Below are positions 2-12,198 of a DNA stretch of 12,354 nucleotides, piece after piece. The stretch's first letter is position 1, and the number at the start of each line of letters is the position of its first letter. The notes under the pieces were generated by a model. That model had not been told where the DNA came from. It saw nothing but the letters and a program-made list of their open reading frames with translations, and searched no databases. Source of the stretch: Candidatus Iainarchaeum sp. Its GTDB lineage: Archaea; Iainarchaeota; Iainarchaeia; Iainarchaeales; JAZDDZ01. Where the stretch lies: positions 1 to 12,354 of the forward strand of contig JAZDDZ010000013.1 in assembly GCA_043809245.1 (NCBI GenBank), written 5' to 3'. The position numbers were made by a program, and so were the translations under genes.

Positions 2-2947
2 TACACAGACCCCGAAGGAAACCCAGAGGGAACAAGCACATACAGATGGGCAAAAAACGGAACCTGGCAAACCGGACAAACAACAAAAACACTAAACGCA
101 AACAACACAACAACAGGAGACAACTGGAAATGCGAAGTAACCCCCGGCGCCCAGACAGGGACAAGCCCTGGCGCGCCAGCTGAAAGCGTGCAGGTAACCA
201 TTAACGCAAACCCACAGCCTCCGCCTGCTTCCTGCAGGTTCATTGGTGCAAACCCGCAAAGCATAATGAAAGGGGAAAACGCAAGCGCGGTAATCACGCA
301 TTCAAATTTTTCCACTCCGCCGAATTCTTATGGCTCGATTATTTGCGGTGACGGCGCAACAGGCGGAACAATTGACTGCAATGCAACAAACTGCACAATC
401 CATTGCGGAGCATACACTTCCTCAGGAACTTATCCTTTAAGCAATTTGTCAGGCCTTTCAAACGGCACTCAAACCGCGGCATCATGCCTTGACAGCGGCT
501 CGTTCAGCGTAACAGTGAATGACCCGGAAAACCAGAACCCTACCGCAACTCTTTCGGCAACTCCTGCAAGCGGGACAACGCCTCTGAACGTTGCATTTGC
601 CGCAACATGCAATGACCCTGACGGCACAATAACATCATGCAGCATTAACTTCGGCGACGGAAACACAACAGCACTTTCAACAATTGAAACAACACAAACA
701 ATACACCACACATACACAAACAGCACCGGGGCTCCGGTCACAAGGAACGCAACCCTTACTGCAACAGATGACAGGGCAGCGCAGGTTTCAAGCATACCCG
801 CAACAATTACAGTGAACCCCGTTGGAATAGTTCCCCCGACTGCAGCACTGAATGCAAGCCCTTCAAGCGGAACCGCGCCCTTAAATGTTTCATTCACCGC
901 AACATGCAATGATTCCGATGGAACGATAAGCTCGTGCTCGCTTAACTTCGGCGACGGAAACACCACAGCGCTTTCAACAATTGAAACAACACAAACAATA
1001 CACCACACATACACAAACAGCACCGGTTCAACGCTTTCAAGGACAGCTACTCTCACCGCAACAGATAACCAGGGGTTAACAGCTTTGTATACTGCGGGAA
1101 TTTCACTTGTAGTGCAGTCAAACCAGCCTCCGACAGCAAGCGCGGGACCTGACAAAAGCGTTCTGAAGGGAACACCCGCTGCATTGTTTGGATTGGGCGC
1201 AGACCCTGAAGGATATAATGTAAGTTACAGATGGAGCCTTTCAAGCGGAACAGGCAATGCATCGGACTGCACTTCAAGCGGCGTTACAAGCGCTTCGTAT
1301 ATTTTAAACTGCACTACTTCCGGCACAAGGATTGCAACGCTTACAGTTACAGACATATTGGGGGAAACCGCAAGCGACAGCGCAGTGATAACTTTTACTG
1401 ATACAACTCCACCACCGCAGTCAAACACCGCACCAACGCTTTCAGGCCTTCCTGACAAAAGCATGAACAGGGATTCATCTCCGCCTGCAAACTGGATTGA
1501 CCTACACGCTTACGCGAATGACGCGCAGGACACTGACGCGCAACTTGCTTTTTCAGTGCAAAGCCAAAGCAACAGCACGCTTGTGAACTGCTATATTTCC
1601 GGAAACAGGTATCTTGACTGCGGGATTTCCGGCGCGGGAAAGACAGGCTCAAATGACGTGAAAATCAGGGTGACTGACTCAGGGGGCCTGTTTGCAGAGG
1701 ACACTCTAAAAATAACCGTAACGGATTCTGCTCCGCCCCCGGAAAACCTTGCGCCGACAGCAAATGCAGGGGGGGCAAAGAGCGCAAATGTTAACGAGCA
1801 GGTTTCGCTGAATGGCTCAGGATCTGACCCTGAGGGGGGCGCTTTGTCTTATCAGTGGAGGCTTTCAAGCGGAACTGGAGCCGCCAATGACTGCACTGCA
1901 AGCGGAACCTATTCACAGCAGTACACTCTAAAGTGCTCTACAAAGGGAACCAGGACCGCAACCCTAACAGTTAAGGACAGCGGGGGCTTGCCTGATTCTG
2001 ATTCCGCGGTTATAACTGTAAAGGAAGTGCAGCCTGAAGGCGAGATTGTATCTGTTTCGTTTAGCTCGTACAAGCTGCGTAAAAACTCCGATGAAAACAT
2101 AACGGTTGTTGTAAAGCTTTCATCCGAATTTGGCACAAGGCTTGTAATGCTAATGGAAGGAGAACCCGTGTTCACTGTTTCACAGCCGACACGTTCATAT
2201 GCCAGCCCGCCAAATTATGTTTCAGAGTTCACTGTATCTGCTTCTGACCTTAACCTGCTTGCTGGAACAGGCACTTACGAGTTAAGGGTTGAAAGCGCGT
2301 CAAACTCGCAGTCATTCAAAAGCGATTACCTTGAGGTTTACGATTCCGGGGGCGCATTGCCGCTTGAAATGGTTTTGCTTGCAGTGCTCTGCATTGCATT
2401 GCTGGTTGCGGCTTACTTCATTTCAAGGAAGGTTCTGGGCAAAAAAGGCGTTAAACTGCCAACAGAAAAGGATATTCCAATTGTAAAAAAAGAGGAAGAG
2501 AAAGAGCAGTTTGTCAAAGGCGAGTACCCTGCAATGAAGAAAGGCAAGGCATTGGAGGATGAATTGCCAGAGCCCAAAGCAAAAAAAGGAAAAGCCGCGG
2601 GAAAAAAGCAAAAGGAAGAGAAGGACAAGGGAAAGGGAATAATTGATGACCTTTTGGAAGAGGAAGAAGAGGAAGCGAAAAAAGAAGGCCCCAAGGGGGA
2701 AGGCAAGGGCGAAGAGCTTGAGGAAATGGGTGTGGGGCTTGAAACCGGCCTTGGCTTTGGCAAAGAAGAGGAAGAGGAAAAGGACTTGTGCCCAAGGTGC
2801 TGGTCAACGCCCGTGAATGTAATTTACTGCCCTGAATGCGGCGAGGGCTTCTGCGAAAAATGCGCAAAAAAAGCGGAAATAGTCCCAGGCAAAGTGAAAT
2901 ATTTCTGCCCGAAGTGCGGAAAAACCGTGAACATTGAAAACGAATGA
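2..2947 (+). CDS. Large membrane-anchored cell-surface protein / putative adhesin (5'-truncated): Ig-like, PKD and cadherin-like repeats, one TM helix, E/K-rich tail, C-terminal C8 zinc finger
   Basis: The frame is open from nt 2 (YTDPEGNPEGTSTYRW...WKCEVTP, an Ig-like repeat), so GTG188 is not the true start. It has PKD motifs (PLNVxF...NFGDG...HTY...ATLTATD) x2, PTAxAG...DPEG..SYxW repeats x2 and a cadherin-like NTAP...IDL...D..D...RVTDSGG unit. TM MVLLAVLCIALLVAAYFI (~2369-2422) is followed by RKVLGKKG. There are many N-x-S/T sequons and four CxxC pairs at 2789-2917. Stop is TGA 2945-2947. Confidence 0.9.
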   Translation, partial: YTDPEGNPEGTSTYRWAKNGTWQTGQTTKTLNANNTTTGDNWKCEVTPGAQTGTSPGAPAESVQVTINANPQPPPASCRFIGANPQSIMKGENASAVITHSNFSTPPNSYGSIICGDGATGGTIDCNATNCTIHCGAYTSSGTYPLSNLSGLSNGTQTAASCLDSGSFSVTVNDPENQNPTATLSATPASGTTPLNVAFAATCNDPDGTITSCSINFGDGNTTALSTIETTQTIHHTYTNSTGAPVTRNATLTATDDRAAQVSSIPATITVNPVGIVPPTAALNASPSSGTAPLNVSFTATCNDSDGTISSCSLNFGDGNTTALSTIETTQTIHHTYTNSTGSTLSRTATLTATDNQGLTALYTAGISLVVQSNQPPTASAGPDKSVLKGTPAALFGLGADPEGYNVSYRWSLSSGTGNASDCTSSGVTSASYILNCTTSGTRIATLTVTDILGETASDSAVITFTDTTPPPQSNTAPTLSGLPDKSMNRDSSPPANWIDLHAYANDAQDTDAQLAFSVQSQSNSTLVNCYISGNRYLDCGISGAGKTGSNDVKIRVTDSGGLFAEDTLKITVTDSAPPPENLAPTANAGGAKSANVNEQVSLNGSGSDPEGGALSYQWRLSSGTGAANDCTASGTYSQQYTLKCSTKGTRTATLTVKDSGGLPDSDSAVITVKEVQPEGEIVSVSFSSYKLRKNSDENITVVVKLSSEFGTRLVMLMEGEPVFTVSQPTRSYASPPNYVSEFTVSASDLNLLAGTGTYELRVESASNSQSFKSDYLEVYDSGGALPLEMVLLAVLCIALLVAAYFISRKVLGKKGVKLPTEKDIPIVKKEEEKEQFVKGEYPAMKKGKALEDELPEPKAKKGKAAGKKQKEEKDKGKGIIDDLLEEEEEEAKKEGPKGEGKGEELEEMGVGLETGLGFGKEEEEEKDLCPRCWSTPVNVIYCPECGEGFCEKCAKKAEIVPGKVKYFCPKCGKTVNIENE
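530..1115 (+). repeat. Two tandem Cys-containing PKD domains (297-nt period) with an 85-bp near-identical core (645-729 / 942-1026)
   Basis: Direct alignment gives 83/85 identity, including a perfect 56-bp block (674-729 = 971-1026) within the shared peptide NFGDGNTTALSTIETTQTIHHTYTNSTG. Flanking codons are diverged. Confidence 0.9.
1121..2020 (+). repeat. Two PKD/REJ-like domains (~1121-1400 and ~1745-2020) flanking a cadherin-like domain
   Basis: PTASAG...DPEG...SYRWSLSSGTGNASDCTSSG...LNCTTSGTRIATLTVTD...SDSAVIT aligns with PTANAG...DPEG...SYQWRLSSGTGAANDCTASG...LKCSTKGTRTATLTVKD...SDSAVIT, with a 624-nt offset and a conserved Cys pair. Confidence 0.85.
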
Positions 2948-2959: not shown

Positions 2960-3754
2960 TCAGGCGGTAGGCTGCGGGTTAACGCTGAATTCTATTCCCT
3001 GCTTTTCTTCGCAGCCCCATGAAGTTGGCTGGTCAATGACTTCCTTCAGGTCCACTGGCGACCATATGATGAGGTCTGCTTCCGCTGGAACAGTTGAAGG
3101 CTCGCTTGCCGATGAAGCGCTTTTTCTCACTAGCTTGAGCGTGCTGAATGCCTGGCCAGTACTGCCTGCCCTTGCATAAATCGAGGAAATTTTTTCCGCG
3201 GAAAGGCTTGTGCAGAAAAGGTTTGAATGCGCTGGCTTTGACGGGTCAAAGTTCCTGCAGGCATCCAGCCCGGCATTGCCTGCGTATTTGCAAAAATATG
3301 CGGGATTGCTTAAGTGCATGAACGCAAAAACATACCTGTCCTCATTTTTAATATAGATGAAGAAAAGATAGTCAAAGGAATTAGAGATGGGTGAAAGGGT
3401 TGCGTAAACGTTTTTTGCAAGAACCATTTTTGTTTCATCGCTCAATGACTCAATTGCGCCTGTTTTTTCCGTGGCAAAGTCCTCCTTGATGTATGCAAGG
3501 AGATGGTCTATTTCAACCCCGTCCTGGTAAATTGAGTTTGCCGGGTCACGGGGAGTTGAACTGTAAAGGATTGTTGAAAGCGCGCTTGAAGCGAAATCAG
3601 AGTTGCCCTGGCGCAGCAGGCCCCTGTCAACGTTCGCGCCGAAAGTGTTGGCAAAAGAGTAAAGGAAAACGCTTAAGCCAGTCACAATCAGGAGGAAAAA
3701 CATTGCGTCAGTCAGGGCCGCCTGCCCTTTTTTATCCCTTAAAATCATTGCCAT
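2960..3754 (-). CDS. Class III signal peptide (pilin-like / minor pilin) protein
   Basis: N-terminus RDKKG|QAALTDAMFFLLIVTGLSVFLYSF has a basic leader, Gly-1/Gln+1 and a hydrophobic helix. The protein has 4 Cys. An alternative start ATG3748 overlaps the upstream stop (ATGA). A GGTGG SD-like motif lies upstream. Confidence 0.85.
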   Translation of the reverse strand: MAMILRDKKGQAALTDAMFFLLIVTGLSVFLYSFANTFGANVDRGLLRQGNSDFASSALSTILYSSTPRDPANSIYQDGVEIDHLLAYIKEDFATEKTGAIESLSDETKMVLAKNVYATLSPISNSFDYLFFIYIKNEDRYVFAFMHLSNPAYFCKYAGNAGLDACRNFDPSKPAHSNLFCTSLSAEKISSIYARAGSTGQAFSTLKLVRKSASSASEPSTVPAEADLIIWSPVDLKEVIDQPTSWGCEEKQGIEFSVNPQPTA

Positions 3755-4275
3755 GCAACCACCACCAAATGCATTGGCTTCACAATTCTCTTGTCTTCAA
3801 CGACAATAGGGAGAATCTTTACCATGAGCATTGTGCCTGAAACATTCTCGGGAATATGGCTCGCGTTAGAGCACCTGAACTCCTCCTCTGTTTCGCTTGA
3901 TTTGAAGAAGTTGAGGTTGAACACGTCAATCCCGCGGTACTGCGATTGTTCGCCGCCCAAATAATCTGTTATGAACTGTTCCGGCGCGCTTGCCGCGTTA
4001 GTTATGCCCGCGATGAATTTCAGCTTTCCGCTTGTCACCTCATTGCATCTCTGCGCGAAGTAATCAGGGCTTGAAATGTAGCCGCTTGACTTCAATACCC
4101 TCACAATTTTTAACGCGTCAAGGTTTGACTGGAATGAATCACTTTTCCTTTCAAACACCTGAAAGGTAAAAGTGAAGACTGAGAAAAAAATCACCAATGC
4201 GAAAAGCAGCGGAATCAAAGAGGGAAGGTCGTCGCCTATTGGCCCGAGAAAGCCCCTGCTTTTTCCTTTCAGCAA
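3745..4275 (-). CDS. Pilin-like protein with probable class III signal peptide
   Basis: TTG start preceded by GGGGGA and overlapping the upstream stop. N-terminus KGKSRG|FLGPIGDDLPSLIPLLFALVIFFSVF. 2 Cys. The C-terminal strand LVVVAW resembles archaeal minor pilins. Confidence 0.8.
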   Translation of the reverse strand: MLKGKSRGFLGPIGDDLPSLIPLLFALVIFFSVFTFTFQVFERKSDSFQSNLDALKIVRVLKSSGYISSPDYFAQRCNEVTSGKLKFIAGITNAASAPEQFITDYLGGEQSQYRGIDVFNLNFFKSSETEEEFRCSNASHIPENVSGTMLMVKILPIVVEDKRIVKPMHLVVVAWQ

Positions 4276-4904
4276 TGGAATCCCCCTTCAAGGTCGGCTA
4301 TATCCGGATGAATTATTTCCCCGACACTGGTTTTTGCTTCCTCGCATATCTGCGCATTGCATGGAATGACGTAAAGCGTTGCCTTTCCGCCTACAATCTC
4401 CTTCACAAAAACAAATGCGTTCCTTGTGTCAGGCAAAGCTGCCTGTGGGTCAATTATTGCCGAGTCAACAACCCCCCATTCATCATCCACCTTGCTCCAG
4501 ATCCTGACATCAGCGCTTGTCCTGAAAGAATTTGCGGCAATCGAATTGGGCTCCTTTCCCTCCTTGACTGCCTGTTGGTAGTCTTTTCTTGACATCACGG
4601 AAAAAATGAGGTAGTTAACGTATTCTCCGTTCTCAAGCTCAAGTTGCTGCCGCGAAACACGCATAACGTAATAAAAGTCATCCCCCAAAAGCCGGATGTA
4701 ATTCGGAAGGTAATGGTACGCACTTTCGCAGAGCGTTGGCGCAGCGACAAGGGAATCAGATAGCTTGACCGCACGGTTGAGCAGTAACTTCATTTCCTCT
4801 ACTTTCACTATGTCAGACAAGCCGAACAAAAAAAAGGTCACGATTGCGAAAACAGATATGACCAGGATTAACAAATTGATTTTGCTTAAAATGAATCCAA
4901 GCAC
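4269..4904 (-). CDS. N-terminally membrane-anchored pilus-associated protein of unknown function
   Basis: GTG start 4 nt after the upstream stop, with an AGGGGG SD-like motif. Hydrophobic N-terminus MLGFILSKINLLILVISVFAIVTFFLFGL without a basic class III leader. 4 Cys. Embedded among pilin-like genes. Confidence 0.8.
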   Translation of the reverse strand: MLGFILSKINLLILVISVFAIVTFFLFGLSDIVKVEEMKLLLNRAVKLSDSLVAAPTLCESAYHYLPNYIRLLGDDFYYVMRVSRQQLELENGEYVNYLIFSVMSRKDYQQAVKEGKEPNSIAANSFRTSADVRIWSKVDDEWGVVDSAIIDPQAALPDTRNAFVFVKEIVGGKATLYVIPCNAQICEEAKTSVGEIIHPDIADLEGGFHC

Positions 4905-4908
4905 GCCG

Positions 4909-5469
4909 TCAGCCCCCTAAAATCTTTTTGTAAACGCATAAAACCGGGTTGGAGCTGAATGCATTGAACTTGCTGATCAAAGTGTAGCGCCCCGAAGAAA
5001 TAATTGAATTATGCCAGTTGACAACCTCATAACCCTCTTCACGGGAAAAATCAGTGCAGCTGTCGGAAGTGAACGCCGTTGAACTGGAAATGAAAAGGCA
5101 CTTTGAAGTGCTGTGCTCGGGATTATAAAATTTCAACAGCGTGCATTCATTGCGGTAACTGCCGCAATAATAAGTGCAGGTATGCGTTTCCTGCTCATAG
5201 CTGATTTTTGTCTCAGTCACGCCCTCAGTTTCCTGATAACAGGAAGGAATAGCAAAAGTCACGGTCTGAGTGCCCTGGCCATTGGCAACAATCTGAATCG
5301 CCTGCTGCAAATCACCAAGGCTTTTTTCAAGTTCGCCCTCGCACTGCTTGTCGCGCAAAACATTCACGGCATAAAGACCAATGGTTATCACAAAAGTCAT
5401 TACAACAACCGCAATCAACAGCTCGAATGGCGCTTCCTCCTGGCCTGACTTTCCCATCTTTGAAGGCAT
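4909..5469 (-). CDS. Cys-rich class III signal peptide (pilin-like) protein, first gene of the minus-strand operon
   Basis: MPSKMGKSG|QEEAPFELLIAVVVMTFVITIGLYAV, with 8 Cys. Start moved from 5511 to ATG5469 (or 5457) because a TATA-like box lies at 5495-5501 and class III leaders are short. Confidence 0.85.
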   Translation of the reverse strand: MPSKMGKSGQEEAPFELLIAVVVMTFVITIGLYAVNVLRDKQCEGELEKSLGDLQQAIQIVANGQGTQTVTFAIPSCYQETEGVTETKISYEQETHTCTYYCGSYRNECTLLKFYNPEHSTSKCLFISSSTAFTSDSCTDFSREEGYEVVNWHNSIISSGRYTLISKFNAFSSNPVLCVYKKILGG

Positions 5470-5492
5470 ATGAATTAAAGAAAGGGCAAGGG

Positions 5493-5510
5493 AATATTTA
5501 ATGCTTCCCA
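5493..5510 (-). promoter_or_regulatory. Putative archaeal BRE/TATA promoter for the minus-strand pilin operon (leaderless mRNA)
   Basis: The minus strand reads GGGAAGCATTAAATATT. TTAAATA lies 26-32 nt upstream of ATG5469 and there is no SD before that ATG. Confidence 0.55.
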
Positions 5511-5537
5511 TCAGTGGGAAAAAGCATCAGGATTCTC

Positions 5538-5557
5538 TTATAAAAAAGTATAATAAT
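5538..5557 (+). promoter_or_regulatory. Putative archaeal BRE/TATA promoter for the ATPase operon
   Basis: TTATAAAAAAGTATAATAAT: a purine-rich run followed by TATAATA about 31-37 nt upstream of ATG5586, with no SD motif. Confidence 0.5.
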
Positions 5558-5585
5558 ACCTTCTCCCTATTTTTTATGTTTCTTT

Positions 5586-8500
5586 ATGAAGATTAGTGGC
5601 TTTGAAGTCGGGCCTTACGCCGTTAAAGAGGAGGGCGGCAAAAGGCATTTGGTTTTTGATTGCAGGGACTGCGTTTACGGAAGCTCCATTGCGGATGACC
5701 AGCACTGCCGCTACCATGTGTTAAGGGTATTGCAGGAAGTGGAGGCAAGCCTTGTAGTGCTCGCGGAAGTCTATGAAAGGGTTTACGATGAACGGCAGGC
5801 AAAAATGCTTGCCGAGATAGCGGCTGCGGCGCAGAAATTCGAAGTGGAAAGCATTTGGTCTTACGCGCACCTCGGGGACCCGCAAATTGAATCAGAGGCT
5901 TTGTTCGGGGAAAGGCATGACATTCTTGCAAAAATCTCGCACGAACTGTTAATGTTTGACCCTGTTGCGGCATACATCGCGCTCTTAGGCGAGGTAAAAA
6001 AAGAAAAGGAAAAATCAGAAAGCATGAAGGGCAGCGGAAAATACTCCGACATATATCTCAACACGCTTCTTTACATTAGGCAGCAGCTTGAAGGCACTGA
6101 ACTAATGCAGATGACAAAAAACATGCTTTTGAAATTAAAGCAGGTGCCTGAAACAATTCAGCTGTACAGGACTTTTTTCGAGGCGCAGGTAAAGCCTTCC
6201 TTCATTGGAGCAAGGCTTTTGTTCGAGGAAATGGAAACCCTGGAGCTGCTGGACGAGTATTCTGTGAAAGATTCAAGCGTGCAGATATTCAAGCACCCGA
6301 ACAAGCCGGAAAAACTTTACTTCATCAATCCCCCTGAATACACGATGCCTCCTGAAAAATACTTCATTCTAAGCAAGACAAAGGAAGTCGTGGCATCATA
6401 CAGGCCGGGGAGAACTTCGCTTTCCACGCTTGCGAAAAGCAGGAAATACTTTGAACGCGTCTACCAGTCAACGATAAAGGATTTGTGCAGGCAGAACAAC
6501 ATTCACCTGGAGAACGAGGAAATAATTGAGTTAAGCCAGATTGTTGCGCGATACACTGTTGGCTATGGAATACTTGAAGTGCTTTTATCCGACAGGAAGC
6601 TGACAGACATTTACGTTGACTCTCCAATTGGCTTAAAGCCATTGTATGTGGTGCATTCGGATTTCGGGCAGTGCCAGACAAACGTTATTTACACCCAGGA
6701 CGAGGCTGACGCGCTTGTAAGCAAAATGCGCGCTTCAAGCGGAAGGCCATTTGATGAAGCGCATCCAGTCCTGGACCTTGACTTGGCGGATTTGGATACA
6801 AGGGTTGCAGTGATTGGGCCGCCGCTTGCAATTGACGGAACAGCCTTTGCATTCAGGCTGCATAAGGTTACGCCTTGGACTTTGCCTCAGTTCATTGACG
6901 CGAAAATGCTTCCACCGCTTGCAGCGGGGCTGCTTTCATTTTTCATTGACGCGCAGGCAACAATGCTTGTGACAGGCTCAAGGGGCAGCGGAAAAACCTC
7001 GCTCATGCAATCGTTGATGCTTGAAATAGTGCAGAGCGCGAGAATAATCGTGCAGGAAGACAGCGTTACAGGCGATGCTGAAATTTTAGTGGAACAAAAC
7101 GGCAAGATGCAAAGAACTACTGTTGGAGAGCTAATTGACAGCGTGATTGAAGAAAACGGCTGTGTTAACCTTGATGGAAGGGAAATTGTTATCACTGAAA
7201 ATAACAGTTTAAAAGTTTTTGCGATGGACACAGAAGGGAAGATTTCTTTGAGTAATGCAAGCCAGCTAATGCGCCACAAAGTGAACAAGGAATTGTACGA
7301 GTTCACGACACGCAGCGGCAAGAAAATCAAGGTAACGAAAGACCACTGCCTTTTTGGCCTGAAAGGCAACGAAATAATGCCAATACGCTCTGAGGAAATT
7401 ACTGAAGGCACATTCATTGCTACGCCCCGGCTAATTCCATTTGAGGATAGGGCGGGATTGGATAAAATAAATATTTTTGAACATGCTGGAACAGCTGAAG
7501 CAGGTTTTGTTGCAGGGGGCGAGATAGAAAAATTGATTGAACGAAACTGGCTGCAGGTTAAGCAGTTTGGCCTGAAGAACTCTTACAATAAAACAACCAT
7601 TCAAGCGTGGAAGAGAAACAAGGTGCTGCCTGCAAAAATATTCCGTGACACAAAGGATTGCTTGGTTGACTTTTCAAAGGTTCTGTATAAAGACTGCAAA
7701 GACTCAAAGGCAATTCCAGCAGAGATTACCCTAAACAAGGATTTTTTGAATTTTATGGGATTATGGCTTGCTGACGGTTGCTATGACGGAAAATACGGCG
7801 TGATAATCTCGTCTCCTGACTGCAGGGAAACCGTTTCAGGGGTCGCAAGGCAATTCGGGCTGCGGGAAAGAAAGCACTCAGACGGTTTTTCATACATAAT
7901 ATCAAACACAGCCCTTGTCTCTGCACTAAAAAACATCATCGGCTTGAATGGTGATTCGCACACCAAAAAATTCCCAAAATGGGTTTACAATCTTTCAAGA
8001 AAACAAATCGCTTATGTTTTGGAAGGCTTGTTCAGCGGCGACGGTTATTCTTCAAAATATGAGGTAGGCATAAGCCTTGTTTCAAAGGAAATGACGAAAG
8101 ACATTCAGCTGCTGCTCCCACTTTTTGGAATAAACACAAGAACAAAGTTTGCCAAAAAGGGCAGAATATTCATTACTAGAATTAGCGGCATTAAAATGCT
8201 CAGAAGCTTTAAGGAAAGCATCGGTTTTCTGCAGGAACATAAAAGGCGCAAACTAAACGAAATGTGTGAAAGGGAGCCATTCCATGACATCTCGGATGTC
8301 ATTCCATTCTCAGCGGAAGCAAAAAAGGAGCTGGCTTCAGCAGTTGTGGGATTCAATAGGCATGATTATGTCTCAAAAGATTACGCTTTAGGAAGGCAAA
8401 AGCTCCAAAAATATGTTAATAAAATGGAATTTGGCTCTTGCGATTTCCTTGAAAAAATCAAAAAAATCGCTGAAAGCGACATTTACTGGGATGAAATAAA

Positions 8501-9404
8501 GGAAGTGAAATGCCTTGGAAAAACAACAGAATACGTTTACGATTTTTCGGTGCCAGGCAAAGAGAATTTTGTCTGCGAAAACATAATTGCGCACAACACT
8601 CTTGAAATCCCAGTGTCTTACATGAAGAACATTGGCTTCAACATTCAAAGGCTGAAAACCCGTTCCCCAATTGGCGTGAGCATGACTGAAAGCGAAGTCG
8701 CGCCTGAAGAGGCCTTGAGGACAGCGCTGAGGTTGGGCGATTCAGCGCTCATCATCGGAGAGGTTCGCAGTACCGAGGCTCGCGTTTTATATGAGGCAAT
8801 GCGAATCGGCGCAGCGGGAAACATTGTCATGGGAACAATCCACGGAGACAGCGCTTACTCTGTTTGGGACAGGATTGTAAACGACCTAGATGTTCCGAAC
8901 ACTTCGTTCAAGGCAACCGATGTTGTTGTTGTGGCAAGGCCCATTCGCTTTGAGGGCTCCCTGAACAGGCAGAGGCGTGTTGTGCAGGTCACGGAGATAA
9001 AAAAGGAATGGCAGAACGATCCCCTGGCGGAAGGGGGAATGCTTGACTTAATGAGCTATGATGCGCGCAAGGACAGCCTTGACTTGCTTGAAGACAATTT
9101 AAAGGAATCAGACCTTTTTTCAAGGATAAGCAAAATGAGCGGCTTGACAATGGGTGAAATGTGGGAGAGCATTAAAATGAACGCAAGCTCAAAAGCATTC
9201 CTTGTGGAGTTAAAGCAGAAAAACAAGCTGCCGGAAATTTTAGAGGCGGAAAACGTCGTTGTAGCAAACAACAAGCTGATGATGCTGAAGCAGGATTACC
9301 TTGACGAGCACGGGGAAATAGATTACTCCGCGGTTTTGGGAAAATGGAAGAACTGGGCAAAGAATTACCTTGCGAAAAGGCTGCTTGCAAGGAAAAAGGC
9401 TTAA
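5586..9404 (+). CDS. Type II/IV secretion / archaeal type IV pilus assembly ATPase (VirB11/TadA/FlaI family), intein-containing; 1272-aa precursor, ~760 aa after splicing
   Basis: Motifs GYGILEVLLSDRKLTDIYV, RPFDEAHPVLD and RVAVIGPPL; Walker A GSRGSGKT (6975-6998); Asp box VQED|TLEI split by the intein; LRTALRLGDS; Walker B LIIGEVR; MGTIHG His-box half; N-terminal CxxC-x11-C motif. Adjacent to a TadC-like gene. Confidence 0.95.
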   Translation: MKISGFEVGPYAVKEEGGKRHLVFDCRDCVYGSSIADDQHCRYHVLRVLQEVEASLVVLAEVYERVYDERQAKMLAEIAAAAQKFEVESIWSYAHLGDPQIESEALFGERHDILAKISHELLMFDPVAAYIALLGEVKKEKEKSESMKGSGKYSDIYLNTLLYIRQQLEGTELMQMTKNMLLKLKQVPETIQLYRTFFEAQVKPSFIGARLLFEEMETLELLDEYSVKDSSVQIFKHPNKPEKLYFINPPEYTMPPEKYFILSKTKEVVASYRPGRTSLSTLAKSRKYFERVYQSTIKDLCRQNNIHLENEEIIELSQIVARYTVGYGILEVLLSDRKLTDIYVDSPIGLKPLYVVHSDFGQCQTNVIYTQDEADALVSKMRASSGRPFDEAHPVLDLDLADLDTRVAVIGPPLAIDGTAFAFRLHKVTPWTLPQFIDAKMLPPLAAGLLSFFIDAQATMLVTGSRGSGKTSLMQSLMLEIVQSARIIVQEDSVTGDAEILVEQNGKMQRTTVGELIDSVIEENGCVNLDGREIVITENNSLKVFAMDTEGKISLSNASQLMRHKVNKELYEFTTRSGKKIKVTKDHCLFGLKGNEIMPIRSEEITEGTFIATPRLIPFEDRAGLDKINIFEHAGTAEAGFVAGGEIEKLIERNWLQVKQFGLKNSYNKTTIQAWKRNKVLPAKIFRDTKDCLVDFSKVLYKDCKDSKAIPAEITLNKDFLNFMGLWLADGCYDGKYGVIISSPDCRETVSGVARQFGLRERKHSDGFSYIISNTALVSALKNIIGLNGDSHTKKFPKWVYNLSRKQIAYVLEGLFSGDGYSSKYEVGISLVSKEMTKDIQLLLPLFGINTRTKFAKKGRIFITRISGIKMLRSFKESIGFLQEHKRRKLNEMCEREPFHDISDVIPFSAEAKKELASAVVGFNRHDYVSKDYALGRQKLQKYVNKMEFGSCDFLEKIKKIAESDIYWDEIKEVKCLGKTTEYVYDFSVPGKENFVCENIIAHNTLEIPVSYMKNIGFNIQRLKTRSPIGVSMTESEVAPEEALRTALRLGDSALIIGEVRSTEARVLYEAMRIGAAGNIVMGTIHGDSAYSVWDRIVNDLDVPNTSFKATDVVVVARPIRFEGSLNRQRRVVQVTEIKKEWQNDPLAEGGMLDLMSYDARKDSLDLLEDNLKESDLFSRISKMSGLTMGEMWESIKMNASSKAFLVELKQKNKLPEILEAENVVVANNKLMMLKQDYLDEHGEIDYSAVLGKWKNWAKNYLAKRLLARKKA
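7062..8597 (+). mobile_element. Intein (512 aa, Ser493-Asn1004, +1 Thr) with LAGLIDADG (DOD) homing endonuclease
   Basis: Block A SVTGDAEILV, block B IKVTKDHCLF (TxxH), block C FMGLWLADGC, block E LEGLFSGDGY, block H SKEMTKDIQLLLPLFGI, block F YVYDFSVPGKENFV and block G IIAHN/T. Removal restores IIVQEDTLEIPV. Confidence 0.95.
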
Positions 9405-9416
9405 AAAAGTGGTTTG

Positions 9417-11744
9417 ATGGCTTGGCAAGGAAGGGCGGCTGATCCAAGGGGCGAATTCTCCCCGGGCAGGCTGTACAAGGAAATCAAAGTTTCAAGGGAG
9501 GAATTTGAAGACGAAGGCGAAGGGGAATTAAAGAAAAAAAAGATTCCCGGTTTTGTCTCTTTCTGCAAGTCAATCCACAAAAGCTTTTCACTTGGAAAAG
9601 GCGCTTCCTTCTCCGAGGAAATAAAAAACGCGGTTGAATTCCTTGACTGGCCCTTGACAGCAGATGAATACAGCTCGACAGTTAAATTTGTCCTCTACTC
9701 CTCGATTTTCGGCGCAATAATCCTCGGAGTCATATTGTTCGTTTTATTGGGGGAACTTGTTTCAGCGATTTTTCCGTCAATGGCTTTCATGGCTCCGCTT
9801 TTTGTTTTCGCACCGCTTCTGATAATCGCAATGTATGCCGCTAACTTCGTGCAGACCTATCCCCTTGCAAAGGCAAAAGAAGAGCAGACCCGCGCGCTGA
9901 CGTATGTTCCGGAAATAATGGGGTACATGATAATGTCAATGAAGCTCGTGCCAAACCTTGAAAAAGCAATTGAATTCAGCGCAGGCCACGGAAGGGGAAA
10001 AATTGCGGATGACTTCAAGCGAATAATATGGGATGTGCAGTTAGGCGTTTACACCACGCTAAGCGAAGCGCTTGACAACCTCGCATACCGCTGGGGCGAC
10101 TTTTCCGAGGAATTCAAGCACGCGCTGATGATGGTGCGCGCATCAGTGATTGAGAACACCGAGGACAAGCGCTACCAGGTGCTTGACAAAACCATGGATG
10201 AAATACTTGAAAGCATTAGAAACAAAATGGAGCAATACGCTAGAAACCTTTCCCAGCCGACAACAATGCTTTTCTACATCGGCGTGCTATTGCCGCTAAT
10301 CCTCATAATAATTCTGCCAGTCGGAAGCTCTTTCAGCGGAGCACCGCTCGCAAACCCAATCCTTTTGTTCCTGCTTTACTGCATCATCATTCCCGCGGTT
10401 GCATTATCTTTTGCTTCAAATCTCGTAAAGCAAAGGCCCCCGGTTTACGAGCCCCCAAACATTCCTGAAAACACTGTTGGATTGCCGCCAAAAAACAAAA
10501 TGTTAATCGGAAAGTCTTGGGTTGACTTGAGGGCTGTTGCATTGCTTGTCCTGATTGCCGGAAGCGCTGTCACGCTGTTTGTTTCAACAGAAGGAATTCC
10601 GCCAAAATTCCTGCTTTCATCGGAAAATGAAAGGCAGCTTATTCCCGCATACAAGGATGAATCGCAAATGCTTGAGGCAAACGGAAGGGCTGCTGATTAT
10701 TTTGCCCCTCCATCAAATGAAAATCCGCAGGGAGGACAAAGGTACAGGGAACTGTTGTCGCAGAGCCTGGCTCCTGAGAAAGCGCAGGACAATCTTGCAA
10801 CAGAGCACCAGCTTTACTTTATGGATTCAAAAAGGGACGTGGCGCCTTACGTGCTTATTTTCGGAATTATGATAACTGTTTCCCTCGCATTATTTGTATA
10901 TCTTTACCATATGAACATTTACAGGAGAAAAAAACAGGTTGAAGTAATCCGAATGGAGGAAGAATTCAAGGACGCGATTTACATTCTTGCCTCGAGAATG
11001 GGTGAAAACAAGCCGGTTGAAGAGGCATTGAAGCATGCAAAGGAATTTTTGCCTAACTTCAAGGTCTCCGAACAGATTTTTGGCAGGATAATTGACAACA
11101 TTTCAATGCTTAACATGCCATTGGATGCAGCGGTTTTTGACCCGCATTACGGTGTGCTGAAAGACAACCCGAGCGCAGTGATAAGGTCTTCAATGCGTCT
11201 TTTGGTTGATTCTGTTCAGCTGGGCGTGAATGTTGCGGCGCGAACAATGATTGCATTAAGCATTCAGCTGACTAACGCACAAAAAGTGAACAAAATGCTT
11301 AAGACCCTTGTAAGCGACACGACTAACATGATGCGTTCAATGGCGTTGTTCATTGCGCCGGTTGTCCTTGGAATAACGACTGCGCTGCAGAAAATAGTGA
11401 TTGTAACGCTTGCGTCAATCGCATCATCAGGGCTTCTTTCCTCGGCGCAGACAGACCTTTCCTCTGTAAGCGTTGCAGGAATTTCGGGCAACTTCAGCGT
11501 CAGCTCATTCATAAAGCCAGATTCAGTGAAGGACATGGTCAATCCCACGCAATTCATTTTCATAATCGCATTGTACATTTTGGAGCTCGTGGTGATAATG
11601 ATTTTCTTCACAACCAAAATAGAGGAAGACAATGACTTGCTTGTAAGGGTAAACATAGCGAAATACCTGCCTATCGCAATCATTGTATTCATCGGCAGCA
11701 TTGTGCTCTCAAATTTTATTGTGGGAAGCTTTTTGGGCGGTTGA
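9417..11744 (+). CDS. Pilus assembly membrane platform protein with two T2SSF-like domains (TadB/TadC-fused, FlaJ/PilC-like)
   Basis: Polytopic membrane protein immediately after the ATPase. Two cytoplasmic repeats (VPEIMGYMIMSMKLVPNLEKAIEF and FKDAIYILASRMGENKPVEEAL) are each followed by TM pairs. Start is ATG9417 or TTG9414. Confidence 0.9.
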   Translation: MAWQGRAADPRGEFSPGRLYKEIKVSREEFEDEGEGELKKKKIPGFVSFCKSIHKSFSLGKGASFSEEIKNAVEFLDWPLTADEYSSTVKFVLYSSIFGAIILGVILFVLLGELVSAIFPSMAFMAPLFVFAPLLIIAMYAANFVQTYPLAKAKEEQTRALTYVPEIMGYMIMSMKLVPNLEKAIEFSAGHGRGKIADDFKRIIWDVQLGVYTTLSEALDNLAYRWGDFSEEFKHALMMVRASVIENTEDKRYQVLDKTMDEILESIRNKMEQYARNLSQPTTMLFYIGVLLPLILIIILPVGSSFSGAPLANPILLFLLYCIIIPAVALSFASNLVKQRPPVYEPPNIPENTVGLPPKNKMLIGKSWVDLRAVALLVLIAGSAVTLFVSTEGIPPKFLLSSENERQLIPAYKDESQMLEANGRAADYFAPPSNENPQGGQRYRELLSQSLAPEKAQDNLATEHQLYFMDSKRDVAPYVLIFGIMITVSLALFVYLYHMNIYRRKKQVEVIRMEEEFKDAIYILASRMGENKPVEEALKHAKEFLPNFKVSEQIFGRIIDNISMLNMPLDAAVFDPHYGVLKDNPSAVIRSSMRLLVDSVQLGVNVAARTMIALSIQLTNAQKVNKMLKTLVSDTTNMMRSMALFIAPVVLGITTALQKIVIVTLASIASSGLLSSAQTDLSSVSVAGISGNFSVSSFIKPDSVKDMVNPTQFIFIIALYILELVVIMIFFTTKIEEDNDLLVRVNIAKYLPIAIIVFIGSIVLSNFIVGSFLGG

Positions 11745-11745
11745 A

Positions 11746-12198
11746 TTGCGGAAAATATCCCTTAACGAAAAAGGCCAGGCTTTTGCGAGCATGCGCCTTC
11801 TCATCGGCGCGGTAATGGGCTTGCTTATATTAGTGATAATAATAAGCGCAATCTCTTACTTTGAAAACCTTGAAATCGACATAAGCGTGAAGCGCGTTAA
11901 TGACGGTTTTGCGAATGCAGTGAAGCAGCCTGACGGCTCAATACTGGAAGTAGGCGATGCCGTTCTTTTAGGGCAGACTTTCAGTTCAAGTGGAATATCA
12001 AAAAAAATGGGGATTGAAAGCGATTGCGTTGAATTATACTCACGGGGCTCCCCGGCATTCGAGGAAATAACTGCTGAAAAGGCAATAGAGGTTAGGCAGC
12101 GCGTCAAAACAAGCGTTTACGTCAGGTGCGAAACCGATCCTCCTTTCGGCTCGGACTGCCCGATTGGCTGCACTGTTTCATTCGGAAAGCCAATATAA
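11746..12198 (+). CDS. Class III signal peptide (pilin-like) protein, 150 aa
   Basis: An in-frame TTG 1 nt after the platform-gene stop, preceded by GGGCGG, gives MRKISLNEKG|QAFASMRLLIGAVMGLLILVIIISAISYF. 4 Cys. The track start at 11683 overlaps the upstream gene and is unlikely. Confidence 0.85.
   Translation: MRKISLNEKGQAFASMRLLIGAVMGLLILVIIISAISYFENLEIDISVKRVNDGFANAVKQPDGSILEVGDAVLLGQTFSSSGISKKMGIESDCVELYSRGSPAFEEITAEKAIEVRQRVKTSVYVRCETDPPFGSDCPIGCTVSFGKPI

Follow-up and report, generated by a model that had tools for sequence, protein, structure and literature searches.

The type IV filament (T4F) locus described here lies on contig JAZDDZ010000013.1 of Candidatus Iainarchaeum sp. (GenBank assembly GCA_043809245.1), a stretch of 12,354 nucleotides that we call the window throughout. 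Its closest described counterparts are the Epd pilus of Methanococcus maripaludis (clade 1, or system 1), the clade 2 (system 2) machines represented by PilB/PilC of Haloferax volcanii and GspE of Archaeoglobus fulgidus (afGspE, Protein Data Bank (PDB) entry 2OAP, which we take to belong to clade 2), the Tad/Flp (type IVc) pili, and the bacterial GspH-I-J-K and PilH-I-J-K proteins. Epd loci hold “at least 5” accessory pilins together with very small major pilins of about 70 amino acids (aa) (Makarova 2016, PMC4858521, section 9), and Epd-like systems use two separate platform genes, according to the parts of PMC6668835 and PMC13705601 that treat them. The pilin sets of clade 2 are modular and movable relative to the ATPase/platform pair (PMC4858521, section 11), while a single large platform gene is given as the usual archaeal form in the relevant part of PMC6668835. 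In bacteria, GspH-I-J-K or PilH-I-J-K form a tip complex from which assembly starts, as stated in the corresponding section of PMC10191384. For DPANN archaea, Makarova et al. 2019 (PMC6393860) state in general terms, in the portion of the paper devoted to them, that pilus loci hold unrecognisable pilins; the portion of Sivabalasarma & Albers 2026 (PMC13705601) on these archaea reports that they rarely carry an ordered T4F locus, with pilins scattered and the subsystem mostly ambiguous; and Makarova 2016 contains no mention of DPANN or Iainarchaeum.

We consider it highly probable that the window holds most of a T4F locus common to nearly all Iainarchaeota (formerly Diapherotrites, DPANN), whose small subunits belong to unrecognised families. 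The genome encodes a T2SSE ATPase, an adjacent T2SSF platform protein, proteins with class III signals (atypical in p176, while p211 is probably leaderless) and an A24 peptidase, and seven small N-terminally anchored families (PilA1, PilA2, mini-pilin, p200, p211, p176 and p264) are kept across the phylum. An earlier model-made note, written from the letters of the window and here called the sequence-only reading, had proposed an archaeal T4F locus in a small-genome DPANN archaeon; this proposal stands, the relatives being titled Iainarchaeum or Diapherotrites, and its description as poorly characterised is apt for a system with no experimental characterisation. The locus is genuine and its genes are intact; it is a lineage-specific form of a machine of known kind, and its function is what we infer.

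Related loci were gathered by scanning one genome per species, which gave 316 pattern matches and 181 confirmed loci; the best 80 of these 181 were examined, including those of archaeon GW2011_AR10, Candidatus Iainarchaeum andersonii and Candidatus Forterrea multitransposorum. Local BLAST and hidden Markov model (HMM) searches across the 80 loci, a synteny comparison of the kind suggested by the sequence-only reading, recovered a recurring gene order: ATPase, platform, PilA1, PilA2, mini-pilin, p200, p211, p176 and p264, with a charged Zn-ribbon protein of about 250-300 aa convergent on p264 and itself preceded by a charged protein with three transmembrane (TM) segments. Each window gene has orthologs in 33-57 of the 80 loci, with motifs and cysteines kept, which argues that these genes are not chance open reading frames (ORFs). 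Platform orthologs adjoin the ATPase in 69 of the 80 loci, and the PilA family sits after the platform gene in nearly all loci with enough flank. All four genes of the p200-p211-p176-p264 cassette were found in 33 loci, in one order and on one strand in every case (33/33), and contig ends truncate a further two loci. When only the 24 loci that extend 8 kb or more to either side of the ATPase are counted, 15 have the cassette. Across the phylum, the ATPase N-domain occurs in 186 of 215 genomes (57 of 58 of high quality) and p176 in 186 of 215 (55 of 58), each nearly always in a single copy. Four of the archaeal-locus contigs (L021, L023, L024 and L066) are recorded under Chloroflexota, Falkowbacteria and Thaumarchaeota bins, which are probably binning errors.

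In the window and in nine other loci (among them L006, L033, L048, L058, L060, L061, L071 and L073), the block from the cassette to the Zn-ribbon gene is inverted upstream of the ATPase. Because the inverted block recurs, the divergent layout, which the sequence-only reading had presented as a special design, is better seen as one of two arrangements of a phylum-wide gene set. The spacer between the divergent genes does have the 116 bp given for it if p200 starts at ATG 5469. This start, residue 15 of the long ORF, is the one used in the ESM Atlas gene call, and it is consistent with the N-termini of orthologs. It is A/T-rich and carries TATA-like boxes in each direction, TTATAAAAAAGTATAATAATA before the ATPase and TTAAATAT on the other strand before p200, which would presumably act as promoters. 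A scan for sigma-70 promoters and terminators gave counts at shuffle level, the model being bacterial and uninformative for archaea.

The ATPase matches PF00437 (T2SSE) with 53.6 bits for the window protein and 61.7 bits for an intein-less ortholog, against a cut-off of 24.9. Its N-extein comprises a lineage-specific N-domain of about 300 aa and an N-domain like that of FlaI/GspE, together with the Walker motifs A and B, which read GSRGSGKTS and IIVQED. The VirB11, PilT and ComGA families match residues ~1034-1116 in the C-extein; with the intein removed, the protein would have about 760 aa. In the intein-less ortholog P0002, residues ~304-685 align to the afGspE, CpaF and FlaI structures, and the best solved relative is afGspE 2OAP (E 2.5e-34, residues 322-685), a likeness to clade 2 that extends to the arrangement of an ATPase gene followed directly by one large platform gene. 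For the first ~300 residues, no solved relative was found among the PDB sequence matches of P0002, and this extra N-domain is a difference from Epd. The N-extein has 968 homologs, and the 120 listed are 63-78% identical; those with source names are labelled Diapherotrites, Iainarchaeum, Micrarchaeota or plain “archaeon.” In NCBIfam the ATPase matches FlaI best (121.9 bits, cut-off 550) and the TadA family second (117.7 bits, cut-off 373), both well under cut-off; the latter match is a likeness to Tad/Flp systems, which differ in having split TadB/TadC, TadZ and secretin parts. The match to FlaI could suggest a rotary, archaellum-like motility filament. We hold this to be very improbable, given that the score lies so far under its cut-off, that archaellin (PF01917) was not found in the organism's own 91.8%-complete genome, and that FlaH and FlaF/G-type matches were not found among the window proteins in Pfam and NCBIfam.

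The ATPase also carries what its sequence identifies as a genuine LAGLIDADG intein, whose splicing is predicted. The insertion covers residues 493-1004, directly after the Walker-B IIVQED, with boundaries taken from intein-less orthologs (ED/S...HN/T, slashes marking the junctions). It has the features of a class 1 intein, namely Ser1 (Ser493), a terminal His-Asn (1004), Thr+1 (Thr1005), the splicing blocks and an endonuclease domain, and it scores 89 bits for PF14890 Intein_splicing (cut-off 35.8) and 40.4 bits for PF14528 LAGLIDADG_3 (cut-off 22.5), with a match to TIGR01445 as well. The treatment of the ATPase as a spliced protein in the sequence-only reading is thus borne out by boundaries and splicing residues that are in place. 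An insertion of 512 aa that splits Walker B, in a locus whose gene order is unlike that of most relatives, might instead be taken for a sign of a decaying or silent remnant, with an intein-interrupted ATPase and an operon broken by inversion. Such decay seems most unlikely to us: all frames are open, the intein keeps Ser1, His-Asn, Thr+1 and its endonuclease motifs, 14 of the 120 listed ATPase homologs also have intein domains, the divergent layout is shared with nine other loci, and the cassette motifs are intact.

A second intein occurs in the same genome. Contig C16 (~9392-13000) encodes a paralogous pilus ATPase beside a TadB/TadC pair and an A24 peptidase, and this ATPase contains a LAGLIDADG intein of 515 aa at the identical insertion point (IED/S...HN/T). 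Between the inteins, identity is 37% across 525 alignment columns, but between the host exteins it is only 26-27%; this looks like a single intein lineage at the same Walker-B site of two paralogous ATPases. Altogether the genome has 5 further T2SSE ATPase genes (C16, C28, C7 and C9), 4 of them beside split TadB/TadC-like platform genes. The pilus locus on C9 includes a separate series of four pilin-like genes, encoding 133, 166, 141 and 292 aa; one of these weakly matches DUF7287 (E 8.4e-5, under cut-off), offering a lead for reading these DUFs as pilin-like.

The platform protein matches PF00482 (T2SSF) with 29.1 bits against a cut-off of 25.2 over residues 180-302. It is polytopic, with about 9 predicted TM segments, and its C-terminal half repeats the layout of a soluble domain plus TM helices. 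Its single 776-aa gene is a difference from Epd-like systems; split pairs occur only in the genome's other loci.

The class III signals of PilA1, p200 and p264 show, in alignments and hydropathy profiles, a conserved [KR]G/Q (the slash marking the cut) that leads into a hydrophobic helix. Archaeal class III signals usually look like this; the Glu at +5 is a bacterial pilin rule, and its absence is normal in archaea. The term “non-canonical,” which the sequence-only reading applied to all four signals for want of that Glu, is therefore unjustified: three of the four are ordinary archaeal signals. Across relatives, the motif [KR]G/Q-x5-[KR] fits 76 of 105 PilA-family ORFs, and among these 76 PilA-type signals position +1 is Q in 74, position -1 is G in 69 and position +7 is K/R in 68. 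Gln at +1 is shared with Epd, but a sequence match to an Epd pilin family was not seen, Pfam Class_IIIsignal being absent from the matches of the small families here.

PilA1 most likely starts at TTG 11746 rather than at 11683, giving the N-terminus MRKISLNEKG/QAFASMRLLIGAV. Over the 80 loci, PilA1 proteins of about 150 aa share the motif KGQAFxxF[KR]LLIGA, and PilA2 proteins of about 180 aa share KGQAFSVFKLLIAA. The mini-pilin, found in 38 of the 80 loci, has about 50 aa and the pattern E[EQ][KR][AG]Q[SG]EW..Y.LI...KPMF.QSQ; cut at its signal, it would be a single hydrophobic helix of about 41-44 aa, close to whose N-terminus an acidic-aromatic pair (Q[SG]EW) is conserved. In size, single helix and acidic-aromatic pair it resembles the Flp pilins, the pair being one that we presumptively liken to the Flp motif. 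The Flp family has no match in Pfam among the 56 PilA1, PilA2 and mini-pilin proteins. The mini-pilin has the size of Flp or EpdE and is better conserved than any other small protein of the set, which makes it a good candidate for the bulk subunit, and seven small proteins that include one of about 50 aa are a further likeness to Epd.

The window is the whole of contig C13 and breaks off at both ends, in a genome of 1.48 Mb in 55 contigs. These breaks account for the apparent lack of a major pilin and a peptidase. The sequence-only reading had reported no small major pilin, archaellin, FlaH or peptidase in the window, which is correct for the window; a true absence of pilin and peptidase does not follow, and the search for them elsewhere in the genome that it proposed found two A24 peptidases, pilA2 and a mini-pilin gene. 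The last two (PilA2 having 181 aa) open contig C3 (C3:194-996). Behind them come genes for a multi-TM protein, for a member of the archaeosortase family (TIGR04178, 41.9 bits, cut-off 23) and for a giant CarboxypepD_reg surface protein. Since loci L058 and L048 have the window's layout and then the same archaeosortase and giant-protein genes, C13 very likely continues into C3, judged by shared gene order. The peptidases (PF01478 above cut-off) lie beyond the window at C23:9620-9913 and C16:15689-16015, and the one on C16 matches EppA (48.3 bits, cut-off 450) and FlaK (55.2 bits, cut-off 330) weakly, far under the cut-offs, a tentative likeness to Epd at most.

As a separate observation, an archaeosortase gene adjoins the pilus locus in 48 of the 80 relatives, and a giant surface protein with CarboxypepD_reg repeats travels with it, its ORFs reaching about 8 kb in relatives. 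On the organism's own C3 the two lie at L083:1896-2441 and L083:3023-5998+, and examples in relatives are L014:7919-8476 and L020:282-8408.

The four cassette genes have ends that overlap or nearly abut, and each small protein has one N-terminal TM segment. Profile-profile comparison of the families found only a weak N-terminal helix match between p264 and p200 (probability 38%), and p200, p211, p176 and p264 are four separate families, unrelated beyond the helix. Pfam and NCBIfam scans of the small proteins returned nothing meaningful; N_methyl (PF07963) was found at E 0.21 only, in 2 of 31 p200 members, and in none of the other three families.

The first protein, p200, has the signal KSG/QEEAPFELLIAV and conserved Glu at +2 and +7. 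Eight cysteines are invariant among 31 aligned orthologs, which fits an extracellular location. Its Atlas model (pTM 0.74) has as neighbours archaeal proteins with class III signals (TM-score 0.55), DUF7289 (0.50) and bacterial PilV/PilX clusters (0.40-0.43). The N-terminus of p176 reads [KR]G/F[IL]GPIGDDLPSLIPL and is followed by the TM helix; GPIGDDLPSLIPL is almost invariant, the most conserved stretch among the small proteins of the locus, with G14, D15, D16, P18, S19, L20 and P22 invariant in 32 orthologs and the Asp-Asp at +7/+8. None of the 523 homologs of p176 has a Pfam domain, and the names shown are all “hypothetical” or “uncharacterized.” The Atlas model (pTM 0.63) finds DUF7287/7288 archaeal proteins and CHASE8/CusS sensor ectodomains at TM-scores of about 0.55. 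In p264 an Asp at +6 is invariant, and the predicted fold is a long N-terminal helix with a globular domain; among the matches listed, p264 seems nearer to PDC/Cache sensor domains than to GspK. Foldseek found no match of p264 in the PDB at E<=0.001, and GspK and GspJ are not among its fold matches listed, where unlisted families remain possible.

A side observation concerns the N-terminal helices, in which conserved charges of opposite sign stand at similar depth: K/R at +7 in PilA (68/76), E at +7 in p200, D at +6 in p264, DD at +7/+8 in p176 and K8 of p211 (counted from Met1).

The p211 protein begins with the motif MLGF[TI]LSK[LI]NLLIL, and nearly all full-length relatives begin at residue 1. 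Its model (pLDDT 95.6, pTM 0.86) consists of a helix at residues 2-54 and a beta domain, and among the matches listed this predicted fold is nearest to the bacterial minor pseudopilin GspI at middling Z-scores of 6.1-6.4, with 6.1 for 3ci0_I; against 9a1f chain R (the XcpGHIJK model) it scores 5.2, with 106 of 116 residues aligned, the N-terminal helix included. Bacterial type IV (pseudo)pilins make up 14 of the 50 best rows, and archaeal pilins, FlaF and FlaG are not among the fold matches listed, although families outside that list may match too. Like p264, p211 had no Foldseek match in the PDB at E<=0.001.

This fold raises the question of whether the cassette corresponds, in archaea, to the priming or tip complex that the H-I-J-K core minor pilins form in bacteria, with p211 as the “I” subunit. 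The likeness lies in four distinct small pilin-shaped proteins in invariant order beside major pilin genes. The differences are the lack of sequence similarity and of an N-methylation/Glu5 motif, a p264 that seems nearer to PDC/Cache domains than to GspK, a p211 that has an extra C-terminal beta domain and is probably leaderless, and a motor and platform of archaeal type. On balance we think the equivalence unlikely. If it held by common descent, a four-part priming complex would predate the split between bacterial and archaeal T4F or would have crossed between the domains; a side prediction is that the opposite charges of the N-helices would pair between neighbouring subunits, replacing the bacterial salt bridge between Glu5 and the N-terminus.

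The same GspI likeness speaks for a short pseudopilus in place of a long adhesive pilus, one that would work as a piston or scaffold to secrete proteins through the S-layer or to take up DNA or substrates (T2SS-, Com- or bindosome-like). Four accessory subunits in fixed order also occur in T2SS and Com operons (Pelicic 2023, PMC10191384, as far as its Table 1 covers them), at least 4 other ATPase/TadB-TadC loci in the genome could make adhesive pili, and a near-universal, single-copy system would fit a housekeeping role in the phylum. On the other hand, a substrate-binding protein, a ComEC-like channel or a secreted cargo gene was not seen in the conserved neighbourhood, and two to three PilA-type genes with an Flp-sized mini-pilin fit a filament, which leaves the pseudopilus an improbable choice beside the T4F locus that we favour.

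Several results weigh against the T4F reading itself. No pilin family in Pfam matches the seven small families (0 of the 56 PilA1, PilA2 and mini-pilin proteins, the first a difference from clade 2 as well, and the cassette families likewise). In p176 a polar stretch of 8 residues precedes the helix, unlike typical pilins. In p211 the residue before Phe, which would be -1, is G, A or S in 29 of 34 orthologs and D, E or M in 5. A second T2SSF repeat was not detected in the platform protein, either by hhalign of its N-half against its C-half or in orthologous C-halves (0 of 11 match T2SSF); the “fused platform protein” of the sequence-only reading is accordingly a platform protein, with T2SSF above cut-off, and the fusion does not stand. 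The 3' end of C13 has no sequence overlap with any contig, and synteny is the sole link to C3. Of the 24 loci with long flanks, 9 have no cassette inside 10 kb, and in five loci of the Forterrea-containing clade the ATPase also lacks a platform gene beside it. Finally, the filament is here a prediction from genes.

On the Forterrea-containing clade (L075, L077-L082) we add that the ATPase stands alone, without platform or pilin neighbours, in the inspected loci L077, L080 and L082, and that platform or pilin matches were likewise not found in the other four. In a one-contig genome of the same family, the p176 gene (G027:C1:709438) lies about 364 kb from the ATPase gene (G027:C1:345068). The gene set of this clade is retained but dispersed.

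Because D, E or M stands at -1 in 5 of 34 orthologs and relatives start at residue 1, p211 is probably uncleaved, with no removable leader, and a reading of it as a processed pilin is not supported. The same two features fit the idea that p211 and p176 are bitopic parts of the assembly machine (stator or alignment proteins like FlaF/FlaG or PilN/PilO/GspM) whose N-terminal motifs contact the platform or the ATPase. So do the conservation of GPIGDDLPSLIPL in p176, beyond what a mere signal would need, and the membrane-anchored sensor ectodomains among its structural neighbours. The p211 fold, however, aligns best to true pseudopilins with the N-terminal helix included (9a1f_R), and both genes are embedded in a series of class III-signal genes whose stops and starts overlap. 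Of the alternatives we regard this as the one with most to recommend it, and still as doubtful.

Under the T4F reading, the intein would splice out of the Walker-B region to leave an active hexameric ATPase, and an A24 peptidase would cut the [KR]G/Q signals (G/F in p176). ATPase and platform would then draw subunits out of the membrane so that their hydrophobic N-terminal helices pack into a filament, with PilA1/PilA2 and/or the mini-pilin as the bulk subunit. The cassette proteins would be accessory (“minor pilin”) subunits of low abundance, needed to initiate, cap or anchor the filament, with p211 probably uncleaved among them. Attachment to surfaces or partner cells would be the most likely use, though this is the weakest step of the scheme; the attachment, uptake or secretion that the sequence-only reading had put forward are candidate functions at the level of guesses.

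The window contains 8 genes with all frames open (Table 1), and the gene content and signal strings quoted in the sequence-only reading are present as described.

Table 1. Features of the window (positions are those of the contig; a slash marks the predicted signal cut).
Feature	Position	Strand	Signal, start or family match
3' part of PKD surface protein	2..2947	+	Pfam PKD_4 E 4.7e-27
p264 (264 aa), last and largest cassette gene	2960..3754	-	KKG/QAALTD
p176 (176 aa), third cassette gene	3745..4275	-	SRG/FLGPIG
p211 (211 aa), second cassette gene	4269..4904	-	starts MLGFILSK
p200, first cassette gene	4909..5469 (long ORF to 5511)	-	KSG/QEEAPF
Divergent spacer, 116 bp	5470..5585	.	
ATPase ORF, 1272 aa	5586..9404	+	
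ATPase N-extein	5586..7061	+	Pfam T2SSE
Intein, 512 aa	7062..8597	+	Pfam Intein_splicing, LAGLIDADG_3
ATPase C-extein	8598..9404	+	VirB11, PilT, ComGA family matches
Platform protein, 776 aa	9414..11744	+	Pfam T2SSF
PilA1, 150 aa from TTG 11746	11746..12198	+	EKG/QAFASM

The gene at the left end, convergent on the cassette, encodes a PKD surface protein of about 1320 aa. Its signal peptide is encoded on contig C21, and it further has PKD repeats, a single TM helix, a cytoplasmic linker rich in charge and, at its C-terminus, a double Zn ribbon. Between the 3' end of C21 and the start of the window there is an exact overlap of 127 bp, and the gene starts on C21 (L103:3492-4634). Only residues ~806-979, the linker and Zn ribbon, match the Zn-ribbon proteins of about 250-300 aa that flank the cassette in 23 of the 80 loci, and upstream on C21 lie an ordinary three-TM charged gene and a full-length Zn-ribbon gene of 283 aa. 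By these comparisons the PKD protein is an extra gene whose predicted cytoplasmic tail repeats the Zn ribbon, and it may tie an external adhesin-like domain to an intracellular partner of the Zn ribbon.

The convergent pair itself occurs at L014:18923-21086, L030:19639-21259, L041:18730-20393 and others, and in the organism's own genome at L103:1624-3534. The product of its first gene has three TM segments and a long charged tail; its second encodes a charged protein of about 250-300 aa with an N-terminal [IVL]PRR[LM][KRL]R[FL] and a C-terminal double Zn ribbon, and the Zn-ribbon HMM matches 27 of the 80 loci.

In the available text of the literature on type IV pili of Iainarchaeum, Diapherotrites or DPANN, or on DUF7285-7289, a published description of this specific locus was not found; the supplementary tables of PMC13705601 may list these genomes. 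New in this analysis are the inverted arrangement, the contig joins, the phylum-wide count of a cassette gene, the GspI-like fold of p211, the Zn-ribbon duplicate in the PKD protein and the paired inteins.

Our findings show that one DPANN phylum has an ordered locus of nine to ten genes in nearly every genome, which is the opposite of the picture given by the DPANN census, and that its seven small subunits are invisible to profile libraries. The high-confidence model of p211, with GspI as its nearest fold, offers a testable approach to the question of whether a minor-pilin complex initiates filaments in archaea as it does in bacteria. For the Iainarchaeota, which are uncultured, the locus is a concrete candidate for attachment to surfaces or partners.

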